Under the pieces are notes generated by a model, which had not been told where the DNA came from, ran no database searches, and saw only the letters and a program-made list of their open reading frames with translations. A DNA stretch of 64,000 nt, taken from assembly GCA_963833225.1 (NCBI GenBank), contig CAWHXD010000007.1, positions 288,001 through 352,000 of the forward strand. The letters are read 5' to 3'. Source of the DNA: an uncultured Chloroflexia bacterium (GTDB lineage: Bacteria > Chloroflexota > Limnocylindria > Limnocylindrales > CSP1-4). Positions 6,018-64,000 of this stretch are shown here, piece by piece (within the stretch, counting starts at the first letter, position 1; every line of letters starts with the position of its first letter). The translations under genes and the position numbers were made by a program.

Positions 6018-7193
6018 TCACGTGCTAGCCAGCCCGTGGTGCCCTGGGCCGCGGGGGATCACCGGCCAGATGTCGGTGACCACCCCGTCGCAATCGACCA
6101 CGTGGAAGGCATCGAACCAGTTGACGGTCGACGGCGCGTAACCCGGTATGACCGCCACCACATCCCCGATCCTGAGCGAGCCGTCCCGGTCGGCGAAGAT
6201 CCCGTGCTCCTCGTCGAACCTTACGGCCCCCTCGTGGTGCCCGATGATCCGGGACAACTCGCCGTCGCCGATCGACTTGCTCCCGGCATCGATGATCACC
6301 CGGCCCGGAGGACGACTGATGACTGTTGCCGCCACGGTCAGGGCGTGCTCAAACCCGTTCACCATGCGGCCGTGGAACACGTCCATCAGCACGTACGTGC
6401 CGGCCTGGATCTCGGTGATCCCGGGATGCGTCGCGGTCCATTCCCAGGTCGCCGTCCCACCCGCCGATCGGACGGGCACGGCGATCCCATCCCGCTCGAG
6501 CCGCTCCGCGACTCCGACGAACAGCGCCATCGCCTCGCGTTGGCGGGCGTGCCGCTGTTCGCGATCGTCGATCATGGAGCAGTGGCCCTCGTACCCGGTG
6601 ATCCCCACGAGCCGTAGGCCGGGCAGACCGACGACCGTTCGTGCCAGGTGGAGCGCGGCCTCGGACGTGTCGACCCCGCACCGATTCATGCCCGTATCGA
6701 CCTCGATACAGATCCCCAACTCGCTGCCGCCGTCGCGCGCGGCCGCAGCCAGATCCGCCGCATTGGCGGCATTGTCGACGGCGACGATGACATCGCGGTC
6801 GCGAGCGAGCCCGGCCAGAACTCGGATCTTCTCGGCTCCCACGACGGTGTTGACGACGAACAGGTGGTCGAGGCCAAACCGGGCGAGAACCGCCGCCTCC
6901 CAGACCGTTGCCATCGACAGCCCGATCGCTCCCGCCTCGATCTGCAGACGGGCGAGCTCCGGGCTCTTGTGGACCTTGATGTGAGGGCGCAGTGCGGCGG
7001 GCATGCCGCTCACGGCGTTCGCCATGACCTCGATGTTGCGGCGGGCGATCGGCAGGTCGAGGACCAGGGCCGGGGTGACCAGCTCCGACCGGTGGCGCCC
7101 GATTGCGGCACCGTATTCCCGGCGCACGTGCTCGTGGACGGCCCCGTAGTCGGACGCCCGTGCGAACGGGTCCCCCCGCCCTCTGCCGGTCAC
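6018..7193 (-). CDS. DSD1 / D-threonine aldolase-family PLP-dependent enzyme (alanine racemase fold)
   Basis: TPALVLDL, LRPHIKVHKS (PLP Lys), IEVDTGMNRCGV, GYEGH, EIQAGTYVLMD, DAGSKS, EEHG. Confidence 0.88.
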   Translation of the reverse strand: MTGRGRGDPFARASDYGAVHEHVRREYGAAIGRHRSELVTPALVLDLPIARRNIEVMANAVSGMPAALRPHIKVHKSPELARLQIEAGAIGLSMATVWEAAVLARFGLDHLFVVNTVVGAEKIRVLAGLARDRDVIVAVDNAANAADLAAAARDGGSELGICIEVDTGMNRCGVDTSEAALHLARTVVGLPGLRLVGITGYEGHCSMIDDREQRHARQREAMALFVGVAERLERDGIAVPVRSAGGTATWEWTATHPGITEIQAGTYVLMDVFHGRMVNGFEHALTVAATVISRPPGRVIIDAGSKSIGDGELSRIIGHHEGAVRFDEEHGIFADRDGSLRIGDVVAVIPGYAPSTVNWFDAFHVVDCDGVVTDIWPVIPRGPGHHGLAST

Positions 7194-7948
7194 GAGGATG
7201 CGGCGTGGCTTCGGGCCGCCCCGGCCACGGCTCCGTCTCGCATGAAGGCGAAGTTGGCGGCCACGTCGCCCCCGTCGAAGACTGCGCTTCCGGTCACGAT
7301 AAGATCGGCGCCGAGCGCACCGACCTGTTCGATGTTCGCCTTCGTCACACCGCCGTCGACGCCCAGAAGGATGGGCCGCCCCGACGCCTCGATGAGGCGC
7401 CGCACGCGTGCGACCCGCTCGCCCGTCGAGGGCAGGAAGGACTGCCCGCTCCAGCCGGGGTCGATCGCCAGGACGAGCACCAGGTCGACCACCTCCAGCA
7501 GCGGCCCGACAGCCTCGATGGGGGTGCTCGGGTCCAGCCCCACGCCGCGGATGATGCCCCGCTCGGGGTCATTCGCGTTCGTCGCGGCTCCAAGCATGTG
7601 CAGGGCCCTGTGGGGGTGCGCCACACCGCCGAGATGGAGCGTGATGATGTCGGCCCCTGCCGCTACAAACGCCTCGACTCTGGAGATCGGGTCCGAGACC
7701 ATGAGATGGACGTCCTTGAGTAGCGGCGTCCGCATCGCTTTGATCAACGGCGGGCCAAACGTGAACTGCGGGCAGTAGACACCGTCCATGACATCGACGT
7801 GGACGAGCTCGGCGCCGCTCGCGGCGAGCCGCTCGAGCTCGTGGCCCAGGTCCAGCAGGTCGGCGGTGAGCATCCCCACGCTGAGGCGCGGCCCGCCGGT
7901 TCGCAGGTGGTCGAGCGACGGGCCAACACCGTTCAGGACCGTTCCCAT
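7190..7948 (-). CDS. Ribulose-phosphate 3-epimerase family protein, LsrE-like
   Basis: HVDVMDG, DVHLMV, VDGGV and VTGSAVF. LSVG, CPQFT and IIRG resemble LsrE, and the gene lies directly after lsrF. Confidence 0.85.
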   Translation of the reverse strand: MGTVLNGVGPSLDHLRTGGPRLSVGMLTADLLDLGHELERLAASGAELVHVDVMDGVYCPQFTFGPPLIKAMRTPLLKDVHLMVSDPISRVEAFVAAGADIITLHLGGVAHPHRALHMLGAATNANDPERGIIRGVGLDPSTPIEAVGPLLEVVDLVLVLAIDPGWSGQSFLPSTGERVARVRRLIEASGRPILLGVDGGVTKANIEQVGALGADLIVTGSAVFDGGDVAANFAFMRDGAVAGAARSHAASS

Positions 7949-7951
7949 TGC

Positions 7952-8851
7952 TCAGGCCGTGACCTTGGGACTGGCATACTCACGCTCTAGCGCCTGGAAC
8001 ACGTCGAACGCCTCGGCCGGCCGATACCCCTCGTGGACGACCTTGCGGACGGCCTGGATCATCGCCGCCGGCGAGGAGCTCTGGAAGATGTTGCGGCCCA
8101 TGTCGACCCCGGCGGCGCCGCTGTCGATCGCCTGCCAGGCCATGGTGAGCGCGTCCAGCTCGGGCAGCTTCTTGCCGCCGGCCATCACGATCGGCACCGG
8201 GCAGCCGGCGGTGACTTTCTCGAAGCCGTCGGCGCAGTAGTAGGTCTTCACGACCTGCGCCCCGAGCTCGGCGCATATGCGCGTGGCGAGTCCGAGGTAC
8301 CGGGCGTCGCGAACCAGCTCCTTGCCAACCGCCGTGACCCCGAGCACCGGGACCCCACGCTTGTACCCCTCGTCCACCTGGCGCGTCATGTTGATCACGG
8401 TCTCGGTCTCGAACTCACCGCCGACGAATACCTGAACCGCGATCGCCGAGGCACCCAGGCGAACGGCATCGTCCACGTCCATGGCGATCCGCTCGTTGGA
8501 CAGCTCCTTCAGGATGCTCGGTCCGCCGCTCGCCCGCAGGACGATCCCTTGCCGCACCGCAGGCGGCACCACGGTCCGGAGCATCCCGCGCGTCAGCATC
8601 AGTGCATCAGCGTGCGGCGCGAGCGGCAGGATGCTGAGGTCGACACGCTCCAGGCCGGTGGTCGGTCCCTGGAAGTAGCCATGGTCGATCGCCAGCATCA
8701 CGGTGTGGCCGCTCTCCGGCCGGAAGATGCGAGCGAGACGGTGCTGCATTCCCCAGTCGTAGGCACCGGAGCCCTTGAGGAAGAACGCCTCGTTCCTCTG
8801 CGGGACGTCCTCGTAGAACTGCTTGATGTCGCTGCTGTCCTGCTCGGGCAT
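7952..8851 (-). CDS. lsrF: 3-hydroxy-5-phosphonooxypentane-2,4-dione thiolase LsrF
   Basis: [79 protein letters not shown]. Confidence 0.93.
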
Positions 8852-8875
8852 CGCACTCGTCCCTTCTTGCCATCG

Positions 8876-10431
8876 TTATGCGCCTGCGGGCCACCACATC
8901 GGCGGAAGCAGCCCAATTCCGACAGGTCGAGGATCCGCGGGTAGAGCGTCCGCCAGCGTGCATAGCTCTCGTCATAGACGGCTCGGGCTGCTGGCTGCGG
9001 CTCGAACGTGCGCTCGAACCGCACGAGCCGGTCGGCCACCTCAGTGAGGTCGCGATACAGACCAGCGCCAACCCCCGCGCAGAACGCGGCCCCCAGCGCC
9101 GTCGATTCCTTGACCACCGGGACCCGAACTGGCAGGCCGATCACATCTGCCACGATCTGTGGCCACAGCTGGCCTTTGGCCGCGCCGCCGGTGAACACGA
9201 GCTCGTCGTAGGTTCGACCGGTGAGCTCCGAGATGATCTCGAGATGGCCCCGGACCGTATATGCCGCCTGTTCCTCGAGCGCCCGAATGGACGCCCGGCG
9301 GTTTGACGCGGCGGGACGGTTGACGTCGAAACCGAGCAACGACGGTGACGCCTGGACCCACCGCTTCGCGTCCATCACGTTGGCGAAGATCGCCGTGATG
9401 CCCTCCGCGCCGGGCGGCACGGACGCGGCGGCCTCCTCCATGACCACGTACGCATCGACACCCCGGCGGTTTGCCTCCGCGACCTCCAGCTCGCAGAAGG
9501 CGTCACGGAACCAGCGCATCGCGATGCCGCACCAGAACCCGATCCCCTCGGTCATCCACTGGTCGGGGACTGCGTGACACAGCGTCCTGACCCGCGCCTG
9601 GGGGTCGATCAGTGGCGCGTCGGTCACGACGGTGAGCTGCCAGAAGCTGCCGCCGACGAGGGTGATTCGATCCGGGCGCACCACCCCGATGCCCACCAGG
9701 CCCAGCTGCGTGTCCGCGCCACCGACCACGACCGGTGTTCCAGCGATCAGGCCCGTCTCCTGGGCCGCTAGGTCGGTAATCGGCCCGACGACCGTGCCGG
9801 GCTCGAGCACTTCGGGCACGATGTCGGTCGAGAGGCCGATCAGGCCCAGCGACGACGCCGACCAGGACCGCGCCCGTAGATCGAACAGGTCTGAACTCGA
9901 CCCGCAGGAGGGGTCGGTCACGAACCGTCCCGTCAGGCGATAAAGCACCCAGTCGCTCAGCATGCCCACGTGCGCGGCTGCGCGAAACACGTCGGGCTCG
10001 TGCGCCTTGATCCACAGAAACCGGGCCGGTGAGGTGATCGAGACCCAGTCGCCCCCCTGCTCGAAGATCTTCCGGGCGTCGCCGCTTCGGACGAGCTCGG
10101 TCGCTTCGGCCGAGGCGCGCGAATCGACGTTCGGGCAGGCCCAGATCTCCCGACCGGCCTCGTCGTAGAGGACCATTCCCTCGCGCATGCTCGTGCTGCT
10201 GACGGCAACGACGGCGGAGGCGGCAACCCCGGCTCGCGTCAGGGCCTCCCGGATGCACTCCCCGATGAGCGACCAGTTGTGGTTCGTGTTGAACACCTGC
10301 GATCCCGGTGCGCCAGGGAGCGCCGCGTGCGTCCATTCCCGCTGGCCGATTGCGACCTGGGTACCGTCCTCCGCGAACAACACGGCCCGGCAGCTGCCGG
10401 TGCCGAGATCGATCGCAAGGATGTAGCTCAT
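8876..10431 (-). CDS. lsrK: Autoinducer-2 kinase LsrK-like FGGY kinase (1-nt frameshift near 8911)
   Basis: LAIDLGTGSCRAV, SSTSMREGMVLYD...IWACPNVDSRA, VGGADTQ, GGSFWQ. Restoring one G in a G run gives a normal C-terminus LLPPMWWPAGA* ending at 8876. Confidence 0.85.
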
Positions 10432-11516
10432 CGTGTCGAGCTCCCGGCGGGTAGCGCGGCCAGCGCCTCGCGATTGGCTACGTTGCGCAAGGGCTCGCCG
10501 GAAGCGAGGCGTTCGATCTCGTGGACGGCCATCTCGCCGCCGTGGTGCAGGGTGTCGACCGTTGCGCCTCCGATGTGGGTGGTCACGACGACGTTCGGCT
10601 GCCCCAGCAACGGATGCCGACCGGTCGCGGGCGAGGGGCTGATGACGTCCAGCGCGACGCCGGCCAGGCGCCCGGACTCGAGGCCGGCGAGGACGGCCGA
10701 TTCGTCGATCAACTCATGACGGGAGGTATTGACGAGGTAGGCACCGGGCTTCATGGCCGCGATCTCGCGCGCTCCGATCATGCCGCGATTGTCGGCCGTC
10801 ACGCGGGCATGGAGCGACACGGAGTCGGCGGCCTCAAGGAGTGGCAGCAGGTCGGCCGGTTCGGCGCCACCTGCGCGTACGACGTCCGGTTCGACGAACG
10901 GGTCATAGGCCAGCACCCGCATCCCGAACGCTTGGGCACGACGGGTGACCCGGTGCCCGATCTGCCCGAAGCCGATGATGCCCAGCGTGTGGCCGGCGAG
11001 GTCGTGGCCGAACCAGCGCACGCCCTCGTAGTTGTCGTGTCCGAACTCGCCACCCTCGTCGACGTGGCGCATGACCTCGTGCAATCGACGCGCCAGCATC
11101 ACAAGGAATGCCATCGTGAGCTCCGCCACGGCGTCGGCATTCTTGCCAGGAGTCGTCACGACGGGGATCCCACGCTCGGTCGCGGCTGCGACATCGACGT
11201 TGACCGGCCCGCCCCGTACACAGCACACGAGCCGGAGCCTGGGGTTGGCGTCCATGACGGCGTCGGTCACTGGCGCTCCCTGCACGACGAGCACATCGTG
11301 ATCGCGCATTGACGCGATGACCTGCCTCGGCGTGCCCAGGTACTCGCGGATCCGCAGTTCCGAGGCCGATGAGGGGGTCCAGCCGGGGTCGTCGAGCACA
11401 TCGACAAACGACACCTCGTGCGGCGGGGACATCACCGTGAAGGCGTCGCGCATGGCCGCTGACGGGCAGTACGAATCACCTACGACGTGGATTTGGAGAG
11501 ACGTCGCAGGGCCCAT
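10428..11516 (-). CDS. D-isomer-specific 2-hydroxyacid dehydrogenase (SerA-like)
   Basis: RGGPVNVD, TPGKNADAVAEL, GIIGFGQIG, SLHAR, LVNTSR, LDV, HIGGAT. Confidence 0.9.
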   Translation of the reverse strand: MGPATSLQIHVVGDSYCPSAAMRDAFTVMSPPHEVSFVDVLDDPGWTPSSASELRIREYLGTPRQVIASMRDHDVLVVQGAPVTDAVMDANPRLRLVCCVRGGPVNVDVAAATERGIPVVTTPGKNADAVAELTMAFLVMLARRLHEVMRHVDEGGEFGHDNYEGVRWFGHDLAGHTLGIIGFGQIGHRVTRRAQAFGMRVLAYDPFVEPDVVRAGGAEPADLLPLLEAADSVSLHARVTADNRGMIGAREIAAMKPGAYLVNTSRHELIDESAVLAGLESGRLAGVALDVISPSPATGRHPLLGQPNVVVTTHIGGATVDTLHHGGEMAVHEIERLASGEPLRNVANREALAALPAGSSTR

Positions 11517-11684: not shown

Positions 11685-12656
11685 GTGAGCGTGACGGTCG
11701 AGACGAGGCCCAAGGACTACCTGACCGAGATCGCGACGCGGTACTACATGCGCGCCGACTCCCAGGTGGAGATCTCCCGTGACCTGGGGCTCGATCCATC
11801 GACGGTGTCGCGATACCTGAAGCGAGCACGAGACGAAGGTGTCGTTCACGTCGAGATCCGGCCACCGAGGCACGAGGAACTGGAGCTCGGCCGGAAGATC
11901 GCCGCGCGTTACGGCCTAGGCCGAGTCGTGGTCGCGCCCGATGAAACCGGTGATGGCGCCGGCGGGGGCGCTCTAGCGTGGACGGCGGCGCGCTTCATCG
12001 AGGATCTGCTTCGGAATGGCATGCGGCTCGGCGTCTCATGGGGCCGAACCCTTGCTGCCACCATCCACGAGTTGCGCGCCGGCACGGTGTCAGGACTTCG
12101 GGTGTCCCCGCTCGCGGGTGGCGTCGCCGACCCGACGCCCGGCATCCAGGGCCACGACCTCGTGCGACGAATGGCCGAGCTCTACCCTGAGTCGACGGTC
12201 AACTACTTGCACGCCCCCGCGATCGTCGGATCCGACGAGACGGTGGCGGCGCTGCTGGGTGATCGGACGATCCAGGCGGCTCTCGATGCGGCTCGGGAGA
12301 GCGAGCTCGCGCTCGTCGGGATCGGCCAGATGGACGAGCAGTCGACGCTGTTCCGAGGTGGGCATGTGGATCCGGAAGATTGGACCGTTCTGATCGCCGA
12401 GGGCGCGACCGGCAACATCAATACGTGCTTCTTCGATCGCGAGGGACGGCCAATCGAGACGCTCAGCGCTCGGACGATCGCCACTTCCCTCGAAGAGCTC
12501 CGGAGAATCCCGACCGTCGTTGCCGTGGCGGGTGGTCGCGGCAAGGTCGCCGCCATCGAGGGTGCGATCGCAACGGGCGCGATCGACATCCTGGTGACGA
12601 ATGAAGCGACGGCGAGGTCGTTTCTTGCGAGGTCGGGTCGCCGCGGACACGGCTGA
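11685..12656 (+). CDS. SorC/LsrR-family sugar-binding transcriptional regulator
   Basis: IATRYYMRADSQVEISRDLGLDPSTVSRYLKRARDEG HTH; LGVSWGRT, LHAPAIV, LVGIG, LVTNE; divergent from the lsrK operon. Start codon uncertain. Confidence 0.9.
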   Translation: MSVTVETRPKDYLTEIATRYYMRADSQVEISRDLGLDPSTVSRYLKRARDEGVVHVEIRPPRHEELELGRKIAARYGLGRVVVAPDETGDGAGGGALAWTAARFIEDLLRNGMRLGVSWGRTLAATIHELRAGTVSGLRVSPLAGGVADPTPGIQGHDLVRRMAELYPESTVNYLHAPAIVGSDETVAALLGDRTIQAALDAARESELALVGIGQMDEQSTLFRGGHVDPEDWTVLIAEGATGNINTCFFDREGRPIETLSARTIATSLEELRRIPTVVAVAGGRGKVAAIEGAIATGAIDILVTNEATARSFLARSGRRGHG

Positions 12657-13317
12657 CGTGAAGGGGCTGGTCCGGTTCGGAGGGTAGGGACGAGCTCGTC
12701 GGCGTGGTCGTGGCCGCGATGGCCTCGCGTGCCCGCTACCGCACGACCGCGTGGGATGCCGCCCCGAACAGCAACCCCCGGCGAGCCCCGCAATCTCTGG
12801 TCGGGACCCCCGATGAACCAGAGATGCGCTTCGACTCCGCAGGCGGCCAGTCAGGCCCGGATCGCTGTGGCGGGCCTATTGGATCGCTCCGTGGATGCAA
12901 GCGACATCGCGACGAGGAGCGGACCCTACCCAGTTGCTTCGTACAGGCGAGCGACATCACGACTGAGCCGGATGGCCCCGCGGCCGAGCCTGCTGTCGAC
13001 GACGACCGCGCCTTCCACTGCCACCGATGCCAGCTCGATCTGGGTGGCGCTGACGCTGGCGCAGAACCGTCCAGAGAGCGCCCGGCGGGCGGTCAGGTGC
13101 TCGCCTTTGCGCTATGGTCAGGACGTGGCGTGCGAGCGCGCGGTGGTGTGCGTCGGCCCTGTGCACCCGCCGTTCGCTCATCGGCCGTCGATGCGTCGAG
13201 GGGTGGCGCTGACACGGAGGCAGGGCGACGCTTCGATTGTTCAGGAATACTGGACGACTGGCGGAGGTGGCAGCGCCGCTCCCGCGTGGCGACCGTGATC
13301 CAGTTCGGAGGGAACAC

Positions 13318-14782: not shown

Positions 14783-15566
14783 TCAGACGGATGACTGCCC
14801 GCCATCCACGACGAGCGCCGTCCCAATGCAGTAGGACGCCTCGTCCGACAGGAGCCACAGGATGGCGGCGGCAATCTCGTCAGCGTGCCCGGCGCGCCCG
14901 AGCGGGATCTGGTCGCTCCAGTATCCAAGCTGGGCCGGGTCGTTCATGACGAAGTCGTTGATCGGCGTATCGATGAATCCCGGGATGACCATGTTCACCC
15001 GGATGTTGTGGCGGGCGAAGTCGATCGCCATGACCTTCATCATCGCGAAGATGCCGCCCTTGCTCGCGCTGTAGGCGGGCTCGTTCGTCGCCATGCCGAG
15101 GTACCCGCAGTTGGACCCGAGATTCACGATCGCGCCGCCACCGGCCGTCTGGAGGTGCGGCAGCGCGTACTTGCAGGTCAGGAACTGGCCGTTGAGGTTG
15201 GTGGTGATGAGCCTGTTCCATGCGTCGAGCGAGATCCGGTCCAGCCGGTCGTCCTGTTCGGGCAGCTCGACGGCGGCGTTCGCGACGACGTAGTCGAGGC
15301 CGCCCAGCGATGAGGCCGCGGCATCGATCGCCGTGCGGATCTGGTCCTCGATCGAGCAGTCAGCCGCCAGCGGCCACGCAAGTGCCCCCGTCGGCTGTGA
15401 TCGCACTGGCGGCGTCATCGAGGCCCGGTTGTCCCCTGGCGATCAGAGCGACGCTCGCGCCCTCCGCGGCGAGGCGCTGCGCGGTTGCCTGCCCAATCCC
15501 CTTGCTGGCCCCGGTCACCAGCGCTCGCTTGCCGGCAAACCGGCCGGGGATCGGCTGGATCGTCAT
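14783..15566 (-). CDS. SDR-family oxidoreductase (frameshift near 15375)
   Basis: VTGASKGIG in the 15360-15566 ORF; ANAA, YSASKGG, IRVNMVIPGFIDT and VVDGG in the 14783-15418 ORF. Confidence 0.88.
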
Positions 15567-15794
15567 GCGTCAGGCCTCCAGACGATCATGACAGGTCGCG
15601 GAAAACGGGTGCCCTGACGCATTCCGATCACCTCCGTTGGGCAGGATCGCGCGCCAGACTCGCTGGCGAGGGAAGCCTAGTCGTGGACGAGGAACAGCGT
15701 CAAGATATTGAGAGTTGACGCACGTTGTCGCGCCGCATGTGGATGGTGGGGAGGACGAGGTCGCGAGGGCCGGCTCGATATGGACCGTGGCCTC

Positions 15795-23179: not shown

Positions 23180-23186
23180 TCCCGAG

Positions 23187-56111: not shown

Positions 56112-58023
56112 ATGGCCCAGCCTGAACTGACATTCAGTCCCCGCCCCGCCGAACGGCCGATCGAAGTGGCTGCCGGGCCGGTCAGGCTCACGATCGAGAA
56201 CGGCGCCGTGAGGTGGGTCGGGCTGCCCGGCGTCGAGATCGTCCACGGCATCTACGGCGCGGTCCGGGACGCCGGGTGGGGCACCATCGAGCCCCACTTT
56301 GAAATCCTACGAGGCCGCCGTCGAAGACGAGGCGTTCGAGCTTCGATTTCGAGCCGCGTGCGTCCGGGAGGCAGACGGGATCGACCTCGCCTGGACGGGC
56401 ACCATCAGCGGTTCGCGTGACGGCACGATCCGCTTCGAATTCGATGGTATTGCGCGCCGTCCCTTCATGGCAACCCGCATCGGCCTGTGCGTGCTCCACC
56501 CTTTGCGCCAAGCCGGCCGTCCTGTCGAGGTGACCACCTTGTTCGGGCGACTGCGCGGCAACTTCCCGGAGCTCATCACCGGCTACATGCCATTCAGCAA
56601 CGTGCGCGAGATCCGGCAGGACCCCGGCCGACGCCACGAGACGCTGATCGAGTTCGCCGGCGACGTGTTCCAGATGGAGGACCAGCGAGCCTTTACCGAC
56701 GCATCCTTCAAGACGTTCAGTCGTCCCCTCGAACTCCCCCAGCCATACCAGGTCGACGCCGGCACGGCCGTTCGACAAACCGTCACCATCGCCGTTCCGC
56801 GCTGGCGCACGCCGAGCCGGAGGAAGATCGCCGCCGCGAGCCAGGATCGCCCCGCCGTTCTTCGCCTCGGAGCGCGCCTGGATCGCCCGTTCCCGGCCGT
56901 CGGATCCGGCCTGGAACCGGCGGATGTCGCCCCGAGTTCTGGGGTCACGGCGGCAATCCGACACCTGGGCCTCGCGCATCTTCGCGCCACGATCGTTGTC
57001 GGAGACACGGACGCGTCCGCCGAGGTCCGGCGGGCCGTCACAGCCGCACGCGAAGCCGACTGTGCTCTCGAGGTCGTCCTTCTCATGGCGCCGACGGATC
57101 CGGGGGTCGAACGCCTCCTCGCCGAGATCGCTTCTTCGAAGGTTGCGGTCGCGCGGATCACGGCCATCGACCCTGTTGGTCATGTGACCTCCCCGGCACT
57201 GGCACACCGCGCTCGCTCGGCACTCCGCGAGGTCGGCCTCGCCGCTCCCTTGGCCGGTGGTTCCCGAGGCTACCTGTACCAGCTCGTTGCCCAGGGCGTC
57301 CCCGCGGATCTCGTGGATGAAGTCGTCTACCCGACGAACCCGCAGGTCCATACGTTCGACGAGGCCTCCATCATGGAGACGGTCGAGACCTTGCCGGTGA
57401 CCGTGCGCACTGCCGCCGCGCTCGCCGGCGGCAAACCGGTCGTCGTGGGGCCTGTCAGCCTCAAGGCACTCATCAACCCCGATCGGACCGGGCCAGACTC
57501 GCCCCCCTTATCGGGCGCGTTGCCGGATCGATACGACCATCGTCAGACCACGCTCTTCGCGGCGGCGTGGACCCTGGGCAGCGCCGCCGCCCTCGCGGGT
57601 GCAGGCGCCGCCGCGATGACCCTGCACGAGGCCGCCGGGTGGGCGGGTCTCGTCGCCGCGTCCCACCGGGGTCTGCCGGAGATGCCCACACCGGCCGGGA
57701 CCGTGCTTCCCGTCGCCCAAGCGACGGTGGCCCTGGCCCAGCTCCGCGGAGCGGAGATGGTTGCGGTGGAAGTACCAGCGAGCTGGGCGGCCACGGCCGT
57801 GCAGCTGCTTCCCGGGCGCGTACGTGTCCTGATCGCCAACCTCAGTCCGGACCCCGGTCGCCTGTCGCTCGGGGAGGTTCGGTCGTCCCCAACCCTTGGT
57901 GAAGGGCGAGCCCTGACGGTCGACGGGCTGGGAGGTGGGCGCTGGGATCCCCTGGACACGAATGGCGGGATCGTTGACCTGGCGGCCTACGGCGTCGCCG
58001 AGCTCGACCTGCGGCTGCCGTGA
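56112..58023 (+). CDS. D-apionate lactonase (ApnL)-like protein (frameshift near 56300)
   Basis: AGPVRLTIENGAVR...AVRDAGWGT, then in the next frame RIGLCVLHP, FPELI, GDVFQMEDQRAFTDASFKTFSRPL..PY, NPQVH.FD..SIMET, D.RQ..LFAAAWTLG. Confidence 0.72.
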
Positions 58024-58061
58024 GTCACTGATGGATGGCACGAGGCACTTGCCAATACCGC

Positions 58062-58146
58062 TATGCTTGGACGACCGGTTGACCAATCACGCACTGATCT
58101 GGCTCAGGTGGCACGCCGTAGGATGCGGTATGACCGGCCTGACCAG
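58062..58146 (+). promoter_or_regulatory. -10 box plus two candidate operators
   Basis: TATGCT (58062-67); TTGGACGACCGGTTGACCAA (58067-86); CGGTATGACCGGCCTGACCAG (58126-46). Confidence 0.7.
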
Positions 58147-58202
58147 TGGTAGCATCGTCTTGCCCGGGCCGCGTCAGGGTCCGGGGTTTGGAGGTTGATC
58201 CG

Positions 58203-59150
58203 ATGGGCAAGCTCGTCAAGGAACTCCTGCCGCCGGCCCCGGATGAGCGGATCATCTACGTCAACGGGGAATACCTGCCCCAGAGCAAGGCCGTGATCTC
58301 GGTCCTCGATCACGGCCTCATGTACGGCGACGGGTGCTTCGACGCCTGGTGTGGCCGCAATGGGTTCATCTTTCAGCACGAGATGCACACGGCCCGGCTG
58401 TTCCGCTCGATCCGCGCCCTGAAGCTCGATCGCTGGCTCAAGATGACGTACCAGGAGATGTTCGACGCCGTCGTGGAGACGGTGCGCCGAAACGTGGTCC
58501 CTGACGTCTACATCAAGGTGCTCGTGACCCGTGGGGTCAGTTCAGAGCCGGTTATCAACATGCGTGACTGCAAGGAGGCAAGCGTCGTCATCTTTGCCCG
58601 TCCGGTCATCTACGAGATGGACATGGCCAAGATGGAGACCCAGGGCATCCGGATGAAGGTCCTGTCGACCCGACGCGTTTCGCACGAGGCGCTCGACCCG
58701 CAGGTCAAGAGCCTCAACTACCTCAACATCGTGATGGGCAAGCTCGAAGCCTGGGACAGCGGCTACCAGGACGGCATCATGCTCGACTCGAACGGGTGGG
58801 TCGCCGAGTGCCCCGGCTACAACATCTTCGGGGTCAAGGACAACACGCTGTTCACCCCATCACACGAGCTCCTGCGCGGGATCACGCGTGCGTCCGTGAT
58901 GGAGATGGGCCGTGACGCGGGGATGCAGGTCGAGCAAGGCTTCTACTCGGCCGCCGATCTCGAGATGGCCGACGAGGTGTTCATCACCAACACCGTCTCT
59001 GGTGTTGCGCCCGTGACCGAGATTGATGGGTTCGTCATCGGAACCGGCAAGCCCGGCCCCCGGACGATCTCCTTCGCCAGGACCTACTACGAGTGGCTTG
59101 AGTCCGGCAAGTACGGCACCCAGTGCTTCCCCGAGGCATGGAAGGAGTGA
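58203..59150 (+). CDS. Class IV aminotransferase (BCAT / D-amino acid / (R)-amine transaminase fold)
   Basis: YVNGEY, SVLDHGLMYGDGCF, H..RLFRS, VKSLNY (PLP Lys), EC.GYNIF, LRGITR, ADEVFIT. Confidence 0.9.
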   Translation: MGKLVKELLPPAPDERIIYVNGEYLPQSKAVISVLDHGLMYGDGCFDAWCGRNGFIFQHEMHTARLFRSIRALKLDRWLKMTYQEMFDAVVETVRRNVVPDVYIKVLVTRGVSSEPVINMRDCKEASVVIFARPVIYEMDMAKMETQGIRMKVLSTRRVSHEALDPQVKSLNYLNIVMGKLEAWDSGYQDGIMLDSNGWVAECPGYNIFGVKDNTLFTPSHELLRGITRASVMEMGRDAGMQVEQGFYSAADLEMADEVFITNTVSGVAPVTEIDGFVIGTGKPGPRTISFARTYYEWLESGKYGTQCFPEAWKE

Positions 59151-59268
59151 CCACCCTGGAGGGCACGCGGCTCCGGCAGAGTCTGCTGCCCGTGGCCGGC
59201 GGCCACGCCCGTCACTAGTCATCGCGCACCGAACGCCGCCAGAGTTGCGAGCACAGGAGGAGGACCCA

Positions 59269-60507
59269 GTGGAGCGAGACATTCAGCGACCCGAGGGTGT
59301 CGTCACCCGACGCCGCTTCCTCTATATCGCCGGAGGTACGGTCACCGTTGCGGCAACAGGCAGCTTCCTGGCTGCATGCGGTTCCGGCGGATCGACCGCG
59401 ACGCCCGTACCCGCCGGGGCATCGTCGACGCCCGTACCCGCCGGGGCATCGTCGACGCCCGTACCCAGTGCGCAGGCCTGCACCGATGTGGGTGGTGTGC
59501 TCAACCTGTTTACCTGGGCTGGCTACGAGGGCACTGATGTCCCGGCCATGAAGCAGTGGTGGGACCAGAGCGGCATCACTCTCAACGTGAAGTACCTCGG
59601 CAACGAGAACATGGTCACGTTCATGAAGGCTCCTGGCCACGAGATCTGGGATGCCAACACGGTGAACCAGGGTGACAACAACGCCTACTTCGAGCAGGGG
59701 ATCATGTCGGAGGTGACCGTTGACGAGGTCCCCGAGATGGCCGGCATGTACTCGGGGATCAAGGACAACCCCATCTTCAAGCTTCGCGATGGCGTGTACA
59801 ACGCCGTTCCGTGGACGATGGGCCCCCTCGGTATCAACTACATCAAGGGCAAGATCGACCCGGTCACGAGCTACGCTGACGTCCTTGCGCCGCGCTTCAA
59901 GAACCGAGTTGGCTGCTTCGACGACGCGCTCAACATGATCTCGACCGCCGCATGCGCGGTGGGCCTTGACCCGGCGGTTCTCACCAGCGATCAGCTCCAG
60001 GGCCCCGTCAGGGACTGGCTCGTTGCCCTTCGGCCGCAGCTCAAGCTGATCTCGCCTTCACTCGGCGATCAGCTTTCGACACTCGTCAGCGGAGACGTCG
60101 ACCTCCAGCTGGTCGGGCTGATCTGGAACATCCTTCAGGGTCGGCAGCAGGATGTCGAGGTCGAATTCGTTTACCCGTCCGAGGGTACGTACGGCTTCGT
60201 GGACTGCATCGCGATCACCCCCTGGGCGCCGAATCGCTGCGCGGCACTCGCATATGCCAGGGCCACGATGTCTCCCGATACCGGGGCCCCCCTCAACGCC
60301 TCAATTGCGGGACTCAGCACGGTTGACGCGGTCAATGAGAAGATGAAGGAGACGAACCCTGACGAGCGGGGCGTCTACCCCGACAACGTCGAGCAGGACT
60401 TCATGAGCAAGATGAAGTGGAACGTAAGCCACACTGATCCGAACGGTGAATATGCGACGAAGGACGAGTGGACCACCGTCTGGACCGAGATCAAGGCGCT
60501 CGGGTAG
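59269..60507 (+). CDS. PotD/PotF-like polyamine or amine ABC substrate-binding protein; Tat lipoprotein
   Basis: TRRRFL, LAAC lipobox, LNLFTWAGY, AVPWTMG..GINY, YPSEG...D..AI. Confidence 0.85.
   Translation: MERDIQRPEGVVTRRRFLYIAGGTVTVAATGSFLAACGSGGSTATPVPAGASSTPVPAGASSTPVPSAQACTDVGGVLNLFTWAGYEGTDVPAMKQWWDQSGITLNVKYLGNENMVTFMKAPGHEIWDANTVNQGDNNAYFEQGIMSEVTVDEVPEMAGMYSGIKDNPIFKLRDGVYNAVPWTMGPLGINYIKGKIDPVTSYADVLAPRFKNRVGCFDDALNMISTAACAVGLDPAVLTSDQLQGPVRDWLVALRPQLKLISPSLGDQLSTLVSGDVDLQLVGLIWNILQGRQQDVEVEFVYPSEGTYGFVDCIAITPWAPNRCAALAYARATMSPDTGAPLNASIAGLSTVDAVNEKMKETNPDERGVYPDNVEQDFMSKMKWNVSHTDPNGEYATKDEWTTVWTEIKALG
59400..59466 (+). repeat. 27-bp in-frame tandem repeat (~2.5 copies) encoding a TPVPAGASS linker
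   Basis: GACGCCCGTACCCGCCGGGGCATCGTC twice, then GACGCCCGTACCC. Confidence 0.9.
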
Positions 60508-60537
60508 CTTCACCCGTAGCGGCGGGAGTCACTCTCT

Positions 60538-61401
60538 ATGAGCCACCGTCGGCAACTCGAGGCCATCCTCGAGTTGCCGCTGGTGATCGGCCTGCTGGGG
60601 ATCATCGTTGTCCCCGCCATCGTGCTCTTCGGCTATTCGCTGTTGGTCTGGGTTCAATACGCTCCAACCGGATCGCCGACCCTCGCCAATTACATCAAGA
60701 TCCTGAGCGACCCACTCTCAGCCACGCTGGCCATCAACACGCTCCTGATCGGCGTGCCCACGGCGCTGATCGCGATCATTGGCGGCTACGTCCTTGCGTA
60801 CTACATCACGTTTGGCACGGGGCGTGGTCGCCAGCTCATGTTCATCCTGGTCGTGACGGCGCTCATGGCCAGCTACCTCGTCCGGGTGTACGCGTGGCGC
60901 ACCCTATTGGGGGAAACCGGGATCCTCAACAGCGCACTCATGGGCGTGGGGATCGTCGACAAACCAGTCGAGTTCATCCTGTTCTCGAAGGCCTCAGCGG
61001 TGATCGTCGAGGTCAGCATCTTCATGCCGCTCGCGGCGCTCATCTTCTACGCCGCCTTGTCAGGGATCCCCTCATCGTTGCGCGAGGCTGCGCGCGACCT
61101 GGGAGCCAGCCGCGCGCTGGCGCTGCGTCGCGTGACGATCCCGCTGACGGGGCCAGCGATCTTGTCCACATCGGCGCTGATCTTCTTTCTGGCGGTCGGA
61201 GACTTCATCACGCCAGTTTTCGTCGGCGGTCCCGGCGCCGTCACTGTCGGCACGAGAATCGTCGCGTACGTGAACGGCACAGGGGACTACGGCATGGCGG
61301 CAGCGTGGTCATTCGTGCTGCTCGGCGCATTCGTCATCATCTTCGTTGGGCTGCGACGCCTGATGAAGACCGGCGGCTTCCTGCCGGACCGGGTGAACTG
61401 A
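60538..61401 (+). CDS. ABC permease, PotB-like
   Basis: LVRVYAWRTLLGETGILN, LREAARDLGA, GDFITPVFVGG. Confidence 0.9.
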   Translation: MSHRRQLEAILELPLVIGLLGIIVVPAIVLFGYSLLVWVQYAPTGSPTLANYIKILSDPLSATLAINTLLIGVPTALIAIIGGYVLAYYITFGTGRGRQLMFILVVTALMASYLVRVYAWRTLLGETGILNSALMGVGIVDKPVEFILFSKASAVIVEVSIFMPLAALIFYAALSGIPSSLREAARDLGASRALALRRVTIPLTGPAILSTSALIFFLAVGDFITPVFVGGPGAVTVGTRIVAYVNGTGDYGMAAAWSFVLLGAFVIIFVGLRRLMKTGGFLPDRVN

Positions 61402-61402
61402 C

Positions 61403-62212
61403 ATGCGTCGGATCTCCATCCCCTGGCTCGCCATCTCAGCAACCTCGTTCCTCGTGTTCCTCTATTCACCGCTTGCGGTGGCGACCCTCTTTGCATTCAA
61501 CAGCGGGCCGAGCCTCCGGTGGCCACCTGAGGGGCTCTCGCTGCGTTGGTTCGAGCGGATGTTCTCCGACCAGAGGTTCCAGGACGCGCTCATCCTCAGC
61601 TTTCAGGCCGCGTTGCTTACGGCCGTCCTGGCCACGGTGATCGGGACGATGGCCTGCTTTGCCTTCACCCGGTACCGCACTCGGACGGCCGCGGGGGCCG
61701 AGGCGCTGGGGCGACTGCCTGCCCTGCTACCGCCGCTGTTCATCGGCATCGGTTTCGTGGTGCTGATGCGAATCCTCACGTTGACGCCGGGGTTCGCAAC
61801 CATCGTGGCAGGGCACACGGTCGTCGCCCTTCCTTGGGTGATCCTCGTCGTCATTGCCCGCCTGCGGACCTACGACGTCGAGCTTGAGGCCGCCGCGCGT
61901 GATCTGGGGGCCAGCCCGCGGCAAGCCTTCCTGAATGTCACCCTGCCGTTGGTCGCTCCGGCGCTCCTCGGGGCGGCGCTCCTCGGGTTCTCCTGGTCGT
62001 TCGACGAAACGCTTGTGACGGTGTTCACGTCGGGGGCCGAGACGACCGTCCCGATGTTCATCCTCGGCAAGCTGCGACGCCTTATTGACCCGTCGGGCAA
62101 CGCCGTCGCGGTGATCCTCCTCGTCATCCCGTGGCTTGCCTTTGGTCTGGCCGCGATCTTCCTCCGCCGCTCAGGCGGCATCACCGCCGTCCTTGGCCAG
62201 CGGACCCGCTAG
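61403..62212 (+). CDS. ABC permease, PotC-like
   Basis: FLYSPL...AFN, SLRWF, LEAAARDLGA, SFDE. Confidence 0.9.
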   Translation: MRRISIPWLAISATSFLVFLYSPLAVATLFAFNSGPSLRWPPEGLSLRWFERMFSDQRFQDALILSFQAALLTAVLATVIGTMACFAFTRYRTRTAAGAEALGRLPALLPPLFIGIGFVVLMRILTLTPGFATIVAGHTVVALPWVILVVIARLRTYDVELEAAARDLGASPRQAFLNVTLPLVAPALLGAALLGFSWSFDETLVTVFTSGAETTVPMFILGKLRRLIDPSGNAVAVILLVIPWLAFGLAAIFLRRSGGITAVLGQRTR

Positions 62213-62246
62213 CCGGCAACGGCCCCAATGGAGCGATACGTCGACC

Positions 62247-63398
62247 ATGACGCTTGACCCGCTTGCGACCCCCAGCGCTCAGAGTTCGGCATCGGAAGGT
62301 TCGCAACAGGGATCCGGCGCCCTCGCGCTCCGGGGGATCACGCGACAGTTCGGGACGGTCATGGCCGTCAACGGAGTATCTCTTGACATCCCGGCCGGGT
62401 TGTTCGTGAGCCTGCTCGGTCCGTCGGGCTGCGGCAAGACGACGCTCCTCCGGATCATCGCGGGGCTGGAAACGCCTGACGCCGGGGCCGTGCTCATCGA
62501 CGACGCTGATATCACTCGTCTTCCGCCCGAGCGGCGACCATTCAACATGGTCTTCCAGCGCTATGCCCTGTTCCCCCACCTCACGGTCCACGACAACGTC
62601 GCATTCGGGCTCACCATCAACCGGCGGGAGCGACCGCCGAAGGCGGAGGTCGAGAGCCGCGTTGCGAAGATGCTCGATCTGGTGGACCTGGCGGGGTACG
62701 AGGGCCGGTATCCGGCCGAGCTGTCGGGCGGGCAGGCACAGCGTGTGGCGCTGGCGCGGGCGCTCGTCCGCCAGCCCAGGGTCCTGCTGCTCGACGAGCC
62801 GCTGGCAGCCCTCGACCGGAACGTCCGGCACCAGGTCCGGGAGGAGCTGCTGCGCATCCACGTCGAACTCGGAACGACGTTCATGTTCGTGACGCACGAC
62901 CAGGACGAGGCACTCTCGATCTCGTCTCTGGTCGCCCTCATGAACGCAGGTCGGTTCGAGCAGGTTGCCGACCCGGAGACGCTGTACCACCAACCGGCGA
63001 CGCTGTTTGCGGCCCGGTTTGTGGGTGCAGGCTCGCTGCTGGACGGCATTGCCGCTGCCCACGGCCCCGACGGCACGGTCGAGGTGGACCTGCAAGGCGT
63101 GCGCTTCGCGAGCACTGATGCGGGCGCGGAGCCCGGGCAGCCCGTAACGGTGCTGCTGCGACCCGAAGAGCTGCAGCTCGTCGAGCCCGGCACTGGACGG
63201 ATCGACGGCGTCGTCGTCACCTGCACCTTCTTTGGCTCGTACTTCGAGGTGAAGTTGCGATCGGGCCTCGGCCTCATCCGGCTCCGCGAGCGCAGCCATC
63301 ACGAGCCGGGGAGCACCGTGGGGATCAGCTGGCCGGACGACGCTGGCATCGCCTATGCGGCGACGACAAATCAGGGCCAACCGATCGAGGGTGTCTAG
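62247..63398 (+). CDS. ABC ATP-binding protein, PotA-like
   Basis: GPSGCGKT, VFQRYALFPH, LSGGQAQR, LLDEP, VTHDQDEA. Confidence 0.93.
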   Translation: MTLDPLATPSAQSSASEGSQQGSGALALRGITRQFGTVMAVNGVSLDIPAGLFVSLLGPSGCGKTTLLRIIAGLETPDAGAVLIDDADITRLPPERRPFNMVFQRYALFPHLTVHDNVAFGLTINRRERPPKAEVESRVAKMLDLVDLAGYEGRYPAELSGGQAQRVALARALVRQPRVLLLDEPLAALDRNVRHQVREELLRIHVELGTTFMFVTHDQDEALSISSLVALMNAGRFEQVADPETLYHQPATLFAARFVGAGSLLDGIAAAHGPDGTVEVDLQGVRFASTDAGAEPGQPVTVLLRPEELQLVEPGTGRIDGVVVTCTFFGSYFEVKLRSGLGLIRLRERSHHEPGSTVGISWPDDAGIAYAATTNQGQPIEGV

Positions 63399-63556
63399 GC
63401 GGAACGGACCTGGCCAGCAATCCGCACGCCCGTCCGGTCGGGAGACCACATTGCCTCCACGGCGTCCCGAGGCGGAATCAGACCAGGTGGCCGTTCGCAC
63501 CACTTGATGGCGTGTTGAGCCCAGCCGCTCGACGGCTGGCGAAGGAGAAGGCAGAC

Positions 63557-64000
63557 ATGACAAAGAGCGCGACAGTGCGCGACCCTCGTCCGCGCTACCC
63601 GCTGGCAGTCGGCCCGACAGGCCGGTACCTCGTCGATGCGGATGGAACGCCGTTTCTTGTCCACGGCGATACCGCATGGTCGGTCATCGTCGCGACGACG
63701 AAGGAAGAGGCAGAGCGCTACCTGGAGGACCGTCGTCGCAAGGGAGTGAGCGCAATCATCGTCAATCTCATCGAGCGCTGCTTCGCCCAGGACCCGCCGC
63801 GGAATGTGTACGGGGATGAGCCCTTCACGACGCCCGGCGACTTCTCAACCCCCAACGAGACGTACTTCGACCACGTTGACTGGATCCTCACCAAGGCGGC
63901 CGAGAAGGGTCTCCTCGTCATGCTCGCGCCGGCATACCTCGGGTACCGCGATCCGCATTGGGAGGGATATCACAACGCGCCGGAAGGCTGGTACGCGGAA
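63557..64000 (+). CDS. DUF4038 / apiosidase-like (GH140-type) domain protein; 3' end runs off the window
   Basis: Not in the ORF track. Manual translation: MTKSA...GRYLVDADGTPFLVHGDTAWS...EEAERYLEDRRRKG...PNETYFDHVDWILTKAAEKGLLVML; AAGGAG RBS. Confidence 0.78.
   Translation, partial: MTKSATVRDPRPRYPLAVGPTGRYLVDADGTPFLVHGDTAWSVIVATTKEEAERYLEDRRRKGVSAIIVNLIERCFAQDPPRNVYGDEPFTTPGDFSTPNETYFDHVDWILTKAAEKGLLVMLAPAYLGYRDPHWEGYHNAPEGWYAE

Follow-up and report, generated by a model that had tools for sequence, protein, structure and literature searches.

The subject of this account is a 64,000-nucleotide stretch of DNA from an uncultured Chloroflexota bacterium (the window) and, in particular, a set of some 42 genes within it that share one operator sequence. 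Between 6018 and 64000 the window holds about 50 genes and one gene fragment, all of them catabolic, transport or regulatory and none of them housekeeping as judged with Pfam and NCBIfam, in agreement with an earlier account made from the letters alone (the sequence-only reading), which had described an uninterrupted run of such genes. The five thiamin diphosphate (ThDP)-dependent systems that it listed can all be located (two E1 alpha/beta pairs, a split transketolase (TK), a fused TK and an acetolactate synthase (ALS)-like enzyme), and so can its three ATP-binding cassette (ABC) importers, the first of which lacks an ATPase, its four pyridoxal phosphate (PLP) or racemase-type enzymes (6021-7193, 21854-23176, 58146-59147 and 34708-35535), and its MttB, dimethylformamidase (DMFase)-like and DUF4038 proteins. 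Two lipoyl-domain genes, the restriction of the E2 protein to its catalytic domain, the full count of regulators (four GntR/FCD and one SorC in 6018-64000, by Pfam) and a decayed or mis-assembled left edge were absent from it. The G+C content of the window is 60-72%, and genes were therefore chosen by third-position GC; family typing used Pfam on 127 open reading frames (ORFs) of high third-position GC and on 81 ORFs in the gaps, together with NCBIfam on 51 selected proteins, and gene start positions are approximate. An Rfam scan of the window gave no riboswitch. The regulon described below is real and conserved, whereas the assignment of its genes to pathways holds at family level only.

The shared operator and its recurrence

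A 20-bp palindrome, TTGGTnnACCGGTnnACCAA, was seen to recur when the intergenic regions were read. With up to three mismatches it has six matches in the window against 0.14 expected (starting at 19803, 20773, 37143, 43460, 51022 and 58067), all of them intergenic, and none of 100 shuffled sequences reached six. The half-site TGGTnnACCGGT, with at most one mismatch, has 20 matches against 3.77 expected; in its exact form it is found at nine places, eight of them intergenic, which adds positions 21738 and 27061, while the ninth, at 42363, falls within the 5'-terminal part of the DUF4432 gene. There is also a variant with a 3-nt spacer, ACCGGTnnnACCA, with two matches against 0.16 expected (34594 and 17208), both intergenic and both in regions that otherwise have no site. 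A position weight matrix (PWM) returned eight sites of at least 19.8 bits and no others above 14.5 bits, 20 shuffles giving between zero and two at 14 bits or more; the matrix was trained on the same eight window sites that it scores, and the independent checks are the searches by mismatch, half-site, spacer variant and relative loci. An exact-palindrome scan of the intergenic regions missed the operator because the spacer bases vary. The motif consists of two adjacent GGTnnACC boxes, in the form TT-GGTnnACC-GGTnnACC-AA. Operators of the FadR subfamily, as set out in the available part of PMC4494728, have TKGT/ACMA boxes with 2- or 3-nt spacing, a rule that the boxes of the window obey; the HypR operator, as given in the available part of PMC6608401, is dissimilar.

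Sites precede all of the 12-13 inferred transcription units from the gene for a URO-D-family protein (15969) to importer 3 (63395). They occupy ten intergenic regions, three of which are divergent promoters, and lie 28-155 nt upstream of start codons. Leftmost is a variant with a 3-nt spacer, ACCGGTTGCACCA (17208-17220), 40 nt upstream of the URO-D gene. Site 1 (19803-19822; 23.5 bits by PWM) is found 117 nt upstream of the first E1 alpha start, site 2 (20773-20792; 25.3 bits) in the divergent promoter region between an FAH-family gene and that of a sugar-isomerase TIM barrel, and site 3 (21737-21756; 20.1 bits), with an exact left box and a degenerate right one, 98 nt upstream of a class-III aminotransferase. 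Site 4 (27060-27079; 19.8 bits) contains an exact half-site and stands 54 nt upstream of the gene for binding protein 1. The second 3-nt-spacer variant, ACCGGTCATACCA (34594-34606), is in the divergent region between the second E1 alpha gene and that of a racemase; site 5 (37143-37162) is in the divergent region between the MttB and fused TK genes, where it overlaps a weakly supported match to a sigma-70-like promoter (37144-37172). Two sites are perfect palindromes with no mismatch, namely site 6 (43460-43479; 28.8 bits), 147 nt upstream of binding protein 2, and site 7 (51022-51041; 28.1 bits), 154 nt upstream of an NAD-dependent epimerase; site 8 (58067-58086; 29.0 bits), with one mismatch, is 60 nt upstream of a class-IV aminotransferase. 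The sequence-only reading had proposed a shared operator for the whole run, and this stands for all units between 15.97 and 63.4 kb, where the operator is far above chance, but not for the left 10 kb: the operator searches gave no site left of 17.2 kb, where an Lsr-like operon, a glyoxalase gene and a broken short-chain dehydrogenase/reductase (SDR) gene are found.

Four regulators are encoded among these genes: regulator 1 (26087-26902, plus strand), regulator 2 (30561-31334, minus strand, after a 166-nt gap that follows an SDR gene), regulator 3 (40579-41403, plus strand) and regulator 4 (41410-42171, plus strand). All have a GntR domain (68-70 bits) and an FCD domain (60-97 bits) in Pfam. 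Over their whole length regulators 1, 3 and 4 share 45-53% identity, and their helix-turn-helix (recognition) stretch is nearly the same; regulator 2 is divergent, with 28% identity to regulator 1. It is likely, from these sequences, that regulators 1, 3 and 4 are repressors that bind the shared operator. Two operator-preceded operons encode regulator 1 and regulators 3 and 4, respectively, and autoregulation is therefore suggested. FCD regulators usually sense carboxylic acids. Catabolism is what FCD-type GntR regulators typically control, according to the available part of PMC4494728.

Recurrence in related genomes was followed with the fused TK gene as anchor. This gave 80 loci in GTDB genomes, mostly metagenome-assembled genomes (MAGs) of Chloroflexota, Dormibacterota and Actinomycetota, each reaching at most 10 kb to either side of the TK gene and together 1.39 Mb, against which 55 window proteins were compared by tblastn. 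Five loci, all in Chloroflexota MAGs (L002, L004, L019, L042 and L055), have at least eight window genes each, at 40-95% identity and in a different order. The enzymes shared with these five loci are the E1 alpha/beta-lipoyl set, the FAH-family enzyme, both TIM isomerases, both aminotransferases, the split TK and the E2 catalytic domain, together with GntR, SDR, importer 1, DUF4432, MttB, racemase, metallo-beta-lactamase (MBL)-fold and ApnL-like proteins, the ApnL-like orthologue being 50% identical in L019 and 34% identical in L004. Gene order is tighter there: the genes of the class-IV aminotransferase, of the fused TK and of the E2 catalytic domain adjoin one another, although in the window as much as 33 kb separates them, and a compact core cluster is seen in L002, L042 and L004. 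Altogether, 26-27 of the approximately 42 regulon genes recur near the fused TK in at least one of the five, with the operator, so that for this core the objection that orthologues might be scattered and never occur together falls away.

The operator is distributed in the same manner. Exact half-sites number 7, 7, 7, 5 and 4 in the five loci, one each in three others and none in the remaining 72; at a PWM threshold of 16 bits, 22 of the 23 sites in the 1.39 Mb belong to the five, and the other 75 loci have at most one operator site. In each of the five loci a site orthologous to operator site 5 is found 110-125 nt upstream of the TK gene. Sites also stand directly upstream of the ApnL-like gene (L019 and L004), the MttB gene (L004) and the racemase gene (L019). 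Elsewhere among the 80, a URO-D orthologue of 68% identity is found 3.5 kb from the TK gene in L047, and in L001 and L050 the gene next upstream of the fused TK belongs to the FAH family. One MAG (contigs L002, L047 and L066) has three copies of the fused TK gene, of which one is of the regulon type, one is near the URO-D gene and one is linked to an aminotransferase. Gene content, the operator and its positions, the paralogy within the set, and the conservation of genes and operator in five other genomes are thus matters of direct observation.

Enzymes, importers and the left flank

Both E1 alpha/beta pairs are encoded on the minus strand, the first with its alpha gene at 18754-19686 (Pfam E1_dh) and its beta gene at 17622-18695 (Transket_pyr/Transketolase_C), the second at 33568-34560 (alpha) and 32555-33571 (beta); the two beta proteins score 372-377 bits against an NCBIfam subfamily cut-off of 321. 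Each pair is followed by a stand-alone lipoyl-domain gene of 80-93 amino acids (aa), the first at 17311-17589 (minus strand; Biotin_lipoyl, 59 bits) and the second at 32313-32552 (minus strand), and the lipoyl-lysine motif is present in both, as VETDK and IETEK, respectively. The operon at 21854-26902 contains the split TK, with its N-terminal half at 23187-24269 and its C-terminal half at 24214-25323, followed by an E2 acyltransferase at 25330-26010 (all plus strand). The latter, of 227 aa, has its DHRVADG motif intact and consists of the catalytic domain only, with no lipoyl or subunit-binding domain by Pfam or on inspection of the translation. A split TK with an E2 is known to make a glycolyl thioester in Qnc/Scl biosynthesis (PMC6335953, in the part available). 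The ALS-like enzyme is encoded at 53076-54782 (plus strand); its assignment as sulfoacetaldehyde acetyltransferase (Xsc) was rejected (273.7 bits against 676.4).

The fused TK-fold enzyme (37266-39629, plus strand; 788 aa) is barely visible to sequence searches, which detect its N-terminal domain only: Pfam gives Transketolase_N alone, at 61.8 bits, and the NCBIfam TK model scores 103 against 488. An AlphaFold2 (AF2) model built from a 21-sequence alignment that included relatives of 28-39% identity has a pLDDT of 84.8 and a pTM of 0.87; a model that drew on only 12 close homologues was of poor quality, with a pLDDT of 53.6, and was set aside. Foldseek aligns the model with solved transketolases over 760-783 columns at E values of 1e-30 to 1e-35 and approximately 20% identity, with a target-normalised TM score of 0.75-0.80, and the model thus indicates a complete three-domain transketolase fold (PP, Pyr and C-terminal), which bears out the name ‘fused TK’ at the level of the fold. 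An hhalign comparison of the fused-TK alignment with the C-terminal half of the window's split TK was not significant (probability 0.4%). The Atlas neighbours of the protein are TK-family clusters of approximately 770-855 aa from many phyla and, more weakly, phosphoketolase clusters (0.95). The family has at least 4755 matches, and the best 120 relatives are all at least 70% identical; tblastn against 72,556 plasmids gave no match.

Several of the other enzymes might act on substituents of a substrate. The URO-D-family protein (15969-17168, minus strand) is MtaA/CmuA-like (Pfam URO-D, 97.7 bits; NCBIfam MtaA/CmuA, 53.2 against 235.4). MttB (35587-37032, minus strand) matches PF06253 with 237 bits over residues 8-477 and TIGR02369 with 342 bits against 525; its ORF is uninterrupted and it is therefore of the non-pyrrolysine type, and its nearest solved relatives are glycine betaine methyltransferases (PDB 9yce and 2qne, E approximately 1e-54). 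As for its corrinoid partner, Pfam scans of the 127 and 81 ORFs gave no B12-binding domain, and there is no cobalamin riboswitch in the window. The DMFase-like protein (47766-50039, plus strand) matches PDB entry 6lvb over residues 14-733 with an E value of 6.9e-90, and in the same PDB search N-acetyl-(R)-beta-phenylalanine acylase was matched over just as full a length; from sequence, ‘amidase’ is the safe reading. No DMFase small subunit turned up among the 127 and 81 ORFs typed with Pfam, a small-subunit model not being part of these scans. In the 392-nt gap before this gene there is a possible ORF of 100 aa (47457-47759, plus strand) with no Pfam match and, by eye, a lipoprotein-like signal. 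The class-III aminotransferase (21854-23176, plus strand), which is the first gene of its operon, clusters with glutamate-semialdehyde aminomutases and D-phenylglycine aminotransferases among its PDB neighbours; the class-IV aminotransferase is at 58146-59147 (plus strand), and the Asp/Glu/hydantoin-racemase-family protein at 34708-35535 (plus strand; Pfam Asp_Glu_race, 65.7 bits).

Other genes suggest oxidation and rearrangement of a carbon skeleton. The FAH-family protein (19864-20672, minus strand, with its start placed by eye) resembles the hydratases/decarboxylases DmpE, DmpH and HpaH (Pfam FAA_hydrolase; dmpE, 188.7 against 408.8). A xylose-isomerase-like TIM-barrel epimerase (20858-21706, plus strand; Pfam AP_endonuc_2) is IolO-like in NCBIfam (254.5 against 300). 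Classical inositol catabolism was considered and dropped, since only this IolO-like piece and the ALS-like one were found. The second TIM isomerase, which is Hyi/OtnI-like (39565-40572, plus strand), and the DUF4432 protein (42200-43309, plus strand) belong to the operon 37266-43309. One SDR gene (31501-32277, minus strand) is in the operon 30561-34560 and another (50039-50806, plus strand) follows the DMFase-like gene, with a weakly supported terminator-like hairpin beyond it (50954-50970). Then come, all on the plus strand, the NAD-dependent epimerase/dehydratase (51195-52199), an MBL-fold hydrolase (52199-53029), the ALS-like enzyme and a TAL/FSA-like protein (approximately 54900-55920). 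After a 378-nt gap there follows the ApnL-like gene (56299-58020, plus strand). The sequence-only reading had called its product ApnL-like, and the protein does belong to the family, its Atlas clusters carrying Apionate_lact_N and Apionate_lact_M, but it falls short of the ApnL equivalog (NF049900, 230.7 bits against a cut-off of 750), and family member is all that it can be called. A DUF4038/apiosidase-like (GH140-like) gene begins at 63512 (plus strand) and runs beyond 64000, truncated by the end of the window.

The three importers, all on the plus strand, differ in class. Importer 1 (27133-30376) is of the oligosaccharide/glycoside (CUT1) type, with an SBP_bac_1 binding protein, two permeases and no ATPase; distant PDB neighbours of its binding protein bind chitin-, arabino- and xylo-oligosaccharides. 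Importer 2 (43626-47373), of the monosaccharide (CUT2) type, has a binding protein (43626-44765) of the ribose class, a double ATPase (44795-46342) and a permease (46342-47373). Importer 3 (59269-63395), of the PotD/PotF-like amine type, has a binding protein (59269-60504) of the polyamine class, permeases at 60538-61398 and 61403-62209, and an ATPase at approximately 62300-63395. By their PDB neighbours, binding proteins 2 and 3 are both distant from solved ones. Near the N-terminus of binding protein 3 are three tandem 27-nt repeats (59384-59466, plus strand; D17), which probably encode a repetitive linker that follows the signal sequence. The G+C content dips to 0.60-0.64 at 28000-30000 and 58000-62000, where the genes of importers 1 and 3 lie, against 0.65-0.72 elsewhere.

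To the left of the regulon there is an operon on the minus strand with a DSD/BhcC-like PLP enzyme (6021-7193, Pfam), an RPE-family epimerase (7193-7948), an LsrF-like protein (7955-8851), an LsrK-like protein (8701-10431) and a 2-hydroxyacid dehydrogenase (10431-11516, Pfam), with a divergent SorC/DeoR-type regulator (approximately 11700-12653, plus strand; LsrR model, 123.8 against 486). Where the sequence-only reading had LsrK, LsrF and LsrE, the first two pass their equivalog cut-offs (NF008187, 610.6 bits against 528, and NF006081, 469.1 bits against 297), but the ‘LsrE-like’ protein falls below the NCBIfam cut-off for rpe (186.6 against 212.6). The LsrK-like ORF extends some 70 residues beyond its family match and overlaps the start of the LsrF-like gene in another frame by 150 nt (8701-8851), possibly because of a lost stop codon or an indel. 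The Lsr-like genes have no orthologue of at least 40% identity within 10 kb of the TK in the 80 loci. This operon (6.0-12.7 kb) is a separate neighbour and not a member of the regulon, since it has no operator site, has its own SorC regulator and is never found near the fused TK. The following 583 nt (12654-13236) match no RNA family, and none of their ORFs matches a protein family. The glyoxalase/VOC-fold gene (13237-14364, plus strand; Pfam Glyoxalase_4), which has an internal duplication with a 522-nt period and 72-84% DNA identity (repeats D7 and D20), is without an operator site and therefore outside the regulon, and in the 80 loci it, too, never occurs within 10 kb of the fused TK.

Next, on the minus strand, are an SDR paralogue in two frames (14786-15418 and 15363-15569, with the N-terminus of the Pfam adh_short match in the other frame) and a fragment of an ABC ATPase (15735-15944) that matches the third ATPase of the window (residues 246-315) with 46% identity by tblastn, so that 14786-15944 points to decay, rearrangement or mis-assembly at the left edge of the regulon. 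Further left are tRNA-Ala (GGC; 5705-5780, minus strand), the sole RNA gene detected in the window, which lies between the Lsr-like operon and leucyl-tRNA synthetase (3048-5624, minus strand), and an IS1182-family transposase (1354-2688, plus strand; 341 bits against a cut-off of 270), which adjoins a cupin gene and a partial F420-dependent LLM oxidoreductase (2-790; Pfam and NCBIfam). There is no integrase near tRNA-Ala. The synthetase, normally the product of an essential gene, is spread over three frames in Pfam, with the N-terminal and editing domains at 4014-5624, a catalytic piece in the ORF at 3875-4660 and the anticodon-binding domain at 3048-3803; there are at least two frameshifts, which would be either an assembly error or the decay of a second copy. 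Frameshifts in the genes of the window may reflect assembly error rather than pseudogenes, because many related MAGs have broken ORFs and the synthetase itself spans three frames.

Explanations of the gene set

The explanation that we favour, and regard as probable though by a limited degree, is that the DNA from 15.97 to at least 63.4 kb is one transcriptional regulon, in which some 42 genes are arranged in 12-13 units, repressed through a double GntR box and encoding a modular catabolic network. It is probably a network with several inputs rather than a single linear route, because modules are duplicated within it (E1-lipoyl sets, sugar-isomerase TIM barrels and TKs each occur twice, SDRs and close GntR paralogues three times), its importers are of three classes and its sensor domains have diverged. 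Regulators 1, 3 and 4 would repress by occupying the double box, or its degenerate or 3-nt-spacer form, at or next to the promoter, and with a common recognition region and differing effector domains several related small-molecule signals would probably open the same gene set. The substrates might be carbohydrate-like compounds bearing amino, N-acyl or N/O-methyl groups, taken up as glycosides or oligosaccharides, monosaccharides and amines by the three importers. They could be trimmed by the GH140-like glycosidase, the DMFase-family amidase, methyl removal by MttB and the URO-D protein, the class-III and class-IV aminotransferases and the racemase. The SDRs, the ApnL-family lactonase, the two TIM isomerases, DUF4432 and the FAH-family enzyme would oxidize the product and move its carbonyl group; cleavage of C–C bonds would fall to the split TK, the fused TK, the ALS-like enzyme, the two E1 pairs and the TAL-like enzyme. 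Finally, acyl or glycolyl units might pass to the free lipoyl carriers, and from these by way of the stand-alone E2 catalytic domain to CoA, with the lipoyl group reoxidized by a housekeeping E3.

A number of observations weigh against this explanation. In 34 of the 80 loci the fused TK is paired with a class-I/II aminotransferase in a housekeeping setting (cytochrome bc, cytochrome c maturation and Fe-S assembly genes) with no operator, and the TK tree, which has 49 rows of 700-900 aa and leaves out L002 and L019 with their broken or fused ORFs, does not separate regulon-type from aminotransferase-linked copies. The role of the fused TK may therefore be general rather than specific to the network, the regulon-type copies forming no clade of their own. 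There are 15-16 of the approximately 42 genes with no match of at least 50% within 10 kb of the TK in the 80 loci; the DMFase-like, NAD-epimerase, ALS-like, TAL-like and DUF4038 genes and importers 2 and 3 are not near the TK in any, except that in L002 the third binding protein has a single match, of 45%. Shared Chloroflexota descent explains part of the co-occurrence, the differing gene order notwithstanding. Regulator 2 or a global regulator may be the protein that binds the operator. No site stands immediately upstream of the DMFase-like, ApnL-like and DUF4038 genes or of regulator 2, and their membership depends on assumed read-through; scans for promoter and terminator consensus sequences did no better than on shuffled sequence. 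No E3 is encoded (the 127 ORFs of the window gave no match of the Pyr_redox type) and no kinase lies inside the regulon. Operator binding, repression, each chemical step and the class of substrate are what we infer from the DNA and protein sequences. As an observation on the TK loci themselves, the pair formed by the TK and the class-I/II (aspartate-aminotransferase-like) gene is conserved, as in L026, where the aminotransferase occupies 8775-9980 and the TK starts at 10001.

A more specific version, which we put forward only tentatively and think unlikely as a whole, joins the parts into a dissociated, multi-input 2-oxoacid dehydrogenase complex of uncultured Chloroflexota that would act on amino- or keto-substituted carbohydrate skeletons. 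Cleavage by TK or E1 would load the free lipoyl carriers, from which the lone E2 would form acyl- or glycolyl-CoA, three GntR sensors would act on the one operator, and the 788-aa TK-fold protein, working downstream of the aminotransferases, would represent a new kind of enzyme that cleaves or transfers ketol units.

The sequence-only reading had proposed one integrated route across the whole 58 kb, Lsr-like genes included, which we take as a linear pathway acting on a single complex substrate, with release of a sugar, removal of N-formyl, N-methyl and amino groups and cleavage to acyl-CoA and triose phosphate. The operator common to 12-13 units, the compact core cluster in L002, L042 and L004, and the adjacency of functions for deacylation, demethylation, transamination and C–C cleavage are all consistent with such a route. 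We nevertheless consider it improbable: the Lsr-like operon cannot be kept within one unit, for it has no operator, has its own SorC regulator and is never found within 10 kb of the fused TK in the 80 loci; there is no kinase inside the regulon to yield triose phosphates; and the duplication of many functions, the three classes of importer and the three sensor paralogues with diverged effector domains fit a multi-substrate network better.

It might also be supposed that unrelated catabolic operons, without functional link, have gathered in a flexible region of the genome. The IS1182 transposase, tRNA-Ala and decayed genes at the left edge, the dips in GC at two importer cassettes and the fact that some 70 of the 80 TK-anchored loci have no other window gene would all suit this, and for the part from 6.0 to 15.9 kb chance juxtaposition is the best reading. 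For the regulon it is very unlikely, since the operator is far above chance and precedes every unit from 15.97 to 63.4 kb, and since genes and operator recur jointly in five other genomes. Least credible of all is a biosynthetic cluster in which the split TK and E2 make a glycolyl unit and the aminotransferases build an amino-sugar-like product, for, although the split TK adjoins an E2 acyltransferase as in QncN/L and SclQ2-4 (available part of PMC6335953) and the set includes two aminotransferases, an NAD-dependent epimerase/dehydratase and genes of methyltransferase families, Pfam and NCBIfam found no acyl carrier protein (ACP), non-ribosomal peptide synthetase, polyketide synthase, glycosyltransferase or exporter, and there are three binding-protein-dependent importers and regulators of the FCD type, which is typically catabolic (available part of PMC4494728).

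If the modular catabolic network is the correct explanation, one short motif unites as one physiological unit many enzymes to which no function has been assigned, including the 788-aa TK-fold family with its thousands of members, DUF4432, the ApnL-like and DMFase-like proteins and non-pyrrolysine MttB, in an abundant, uncultured soil lineage. The three binding proteins and three sensor domains would be tractable handles for ligand screening, and the dissociated lipoyl carrier and E2 catalytic domain could show how, where no classical complex is involved, C–C cleavage by ThDP enzymes is linked to the capture of the fragments by CoA. Otherwise, a clean, sequence-predicted multi-operon GntR regulon would still be left.

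Comparison with known systems

The sequence-only reading knew of no described pathway with this combination of genes. Full-text literature searches on DUF4432, on DMFase/transketolase/MttB clusters and on a stand-alone lipoyl domain with an E2 catalytic domain likewise gave, within the literature searched, no account of this set. The links that had been drawn to autoinducer-2 (AI-2), apiose/apionate, acetoin and methylamine metabolism stand as family resemblances, but key partner genes were not found, and, compared feature by feature, the set does not map onto the apiose, acetoin/2-oxoacid, Lsr or methylamine pathways.

The roles of LsrK, LsrG and LsrF in AI-2 processing are described in the available part of PMC8016206. 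The window resembles the Lsr system in having LsrK-like and LsrF-like proteins at equivalog level, with an RPE-family gene and a SorC-family regulator adjoining, but its operon adds a 2-hydroxyacid dehydrogenase and a DSD/BhcC-like PLP enzyme. LsrG has no match in Pfam among the 127 ORFs or the 81 gap ORFs; for LsrACDB, there is no transporter in 6-13 kb, the best LsrB score in the window (33.5 against 384) belonging to a distant binding protein; and the LsrR model is not reached by the regulator (123.8 against 486).

With the complexes that act on 2-oxoacids and acetoin, the window shares E1 alpha-beta pairs, the lipoyl-lysine motif and the E2 motif DHRxxDG. In contrast to these complexes, its lipoyl and E2 catalytic domains are separate small proteins in different operons, there is no subunit-binding domain or E3 gene, and two E1 sets accompany one E2 that stands beside the split TK. 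That last arrangement is closer to QncN/QncL/QncM and SclQ1-4, in which, according to the available part of PMC6335953, the genes for a ThDP-binding and a Pyr/C-terminal half of a TK stand next to that of an E2 acyltransferase. The likeness is one of gene arrangement; the window has no ACP, its lipoyl domain is unfused and its setting is catabolic, with importers and GntR regulators.

Degradation of D-apiose and D-apionate takes place by one TK route and three oxidative routes (PMC13753588, in the part available). The window resembles these in having a member of the ApnL family, a GH140-like apiosidase domain and, by family, a split TK, but the ApnL-like protein is far below its cut-off (230.7 against 750), there is no kinase in the regulon, and no ApnO-named family is among the matches listed (the best 25 per protein for 51 proteins, the library's ApnO model itself being unchecked). 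The enzyme set does not map onto the apiose routes described in that source, as far as it is available. As for canonical transketolase and phosphoketolase, the fused TK is predicted by its model to have the full three-domain fold, but it is only approximately 20% identical to solved transketolases and some 120 residues longer, scores 103 against 488 bits, and belongs to a tight, widespread family.

The closest comparison is with the regulons of FadR-subfamily GntR proteins (PdhR, LldR, GlcC and UxuR-type). As in these, winged helix-turn-helix proteins with FCD domains are encoded inside the operons that they putatively control, and palindromic GT..AC boxes with 2-3 nt spacing are found at catabolic and transport promoters (available part of PMC4494728). 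Unlike these, the window has a 20-bp tandem double box and a regulon of unusual size, with 10 sites for approximately 42 genes in one 48-kb stretch, and three closely paralogous regulators seemingly share the one operator. In its regulation the set can be described as a variant, large and with tandem boxes, of the control known from FadR-type GntR proteins.

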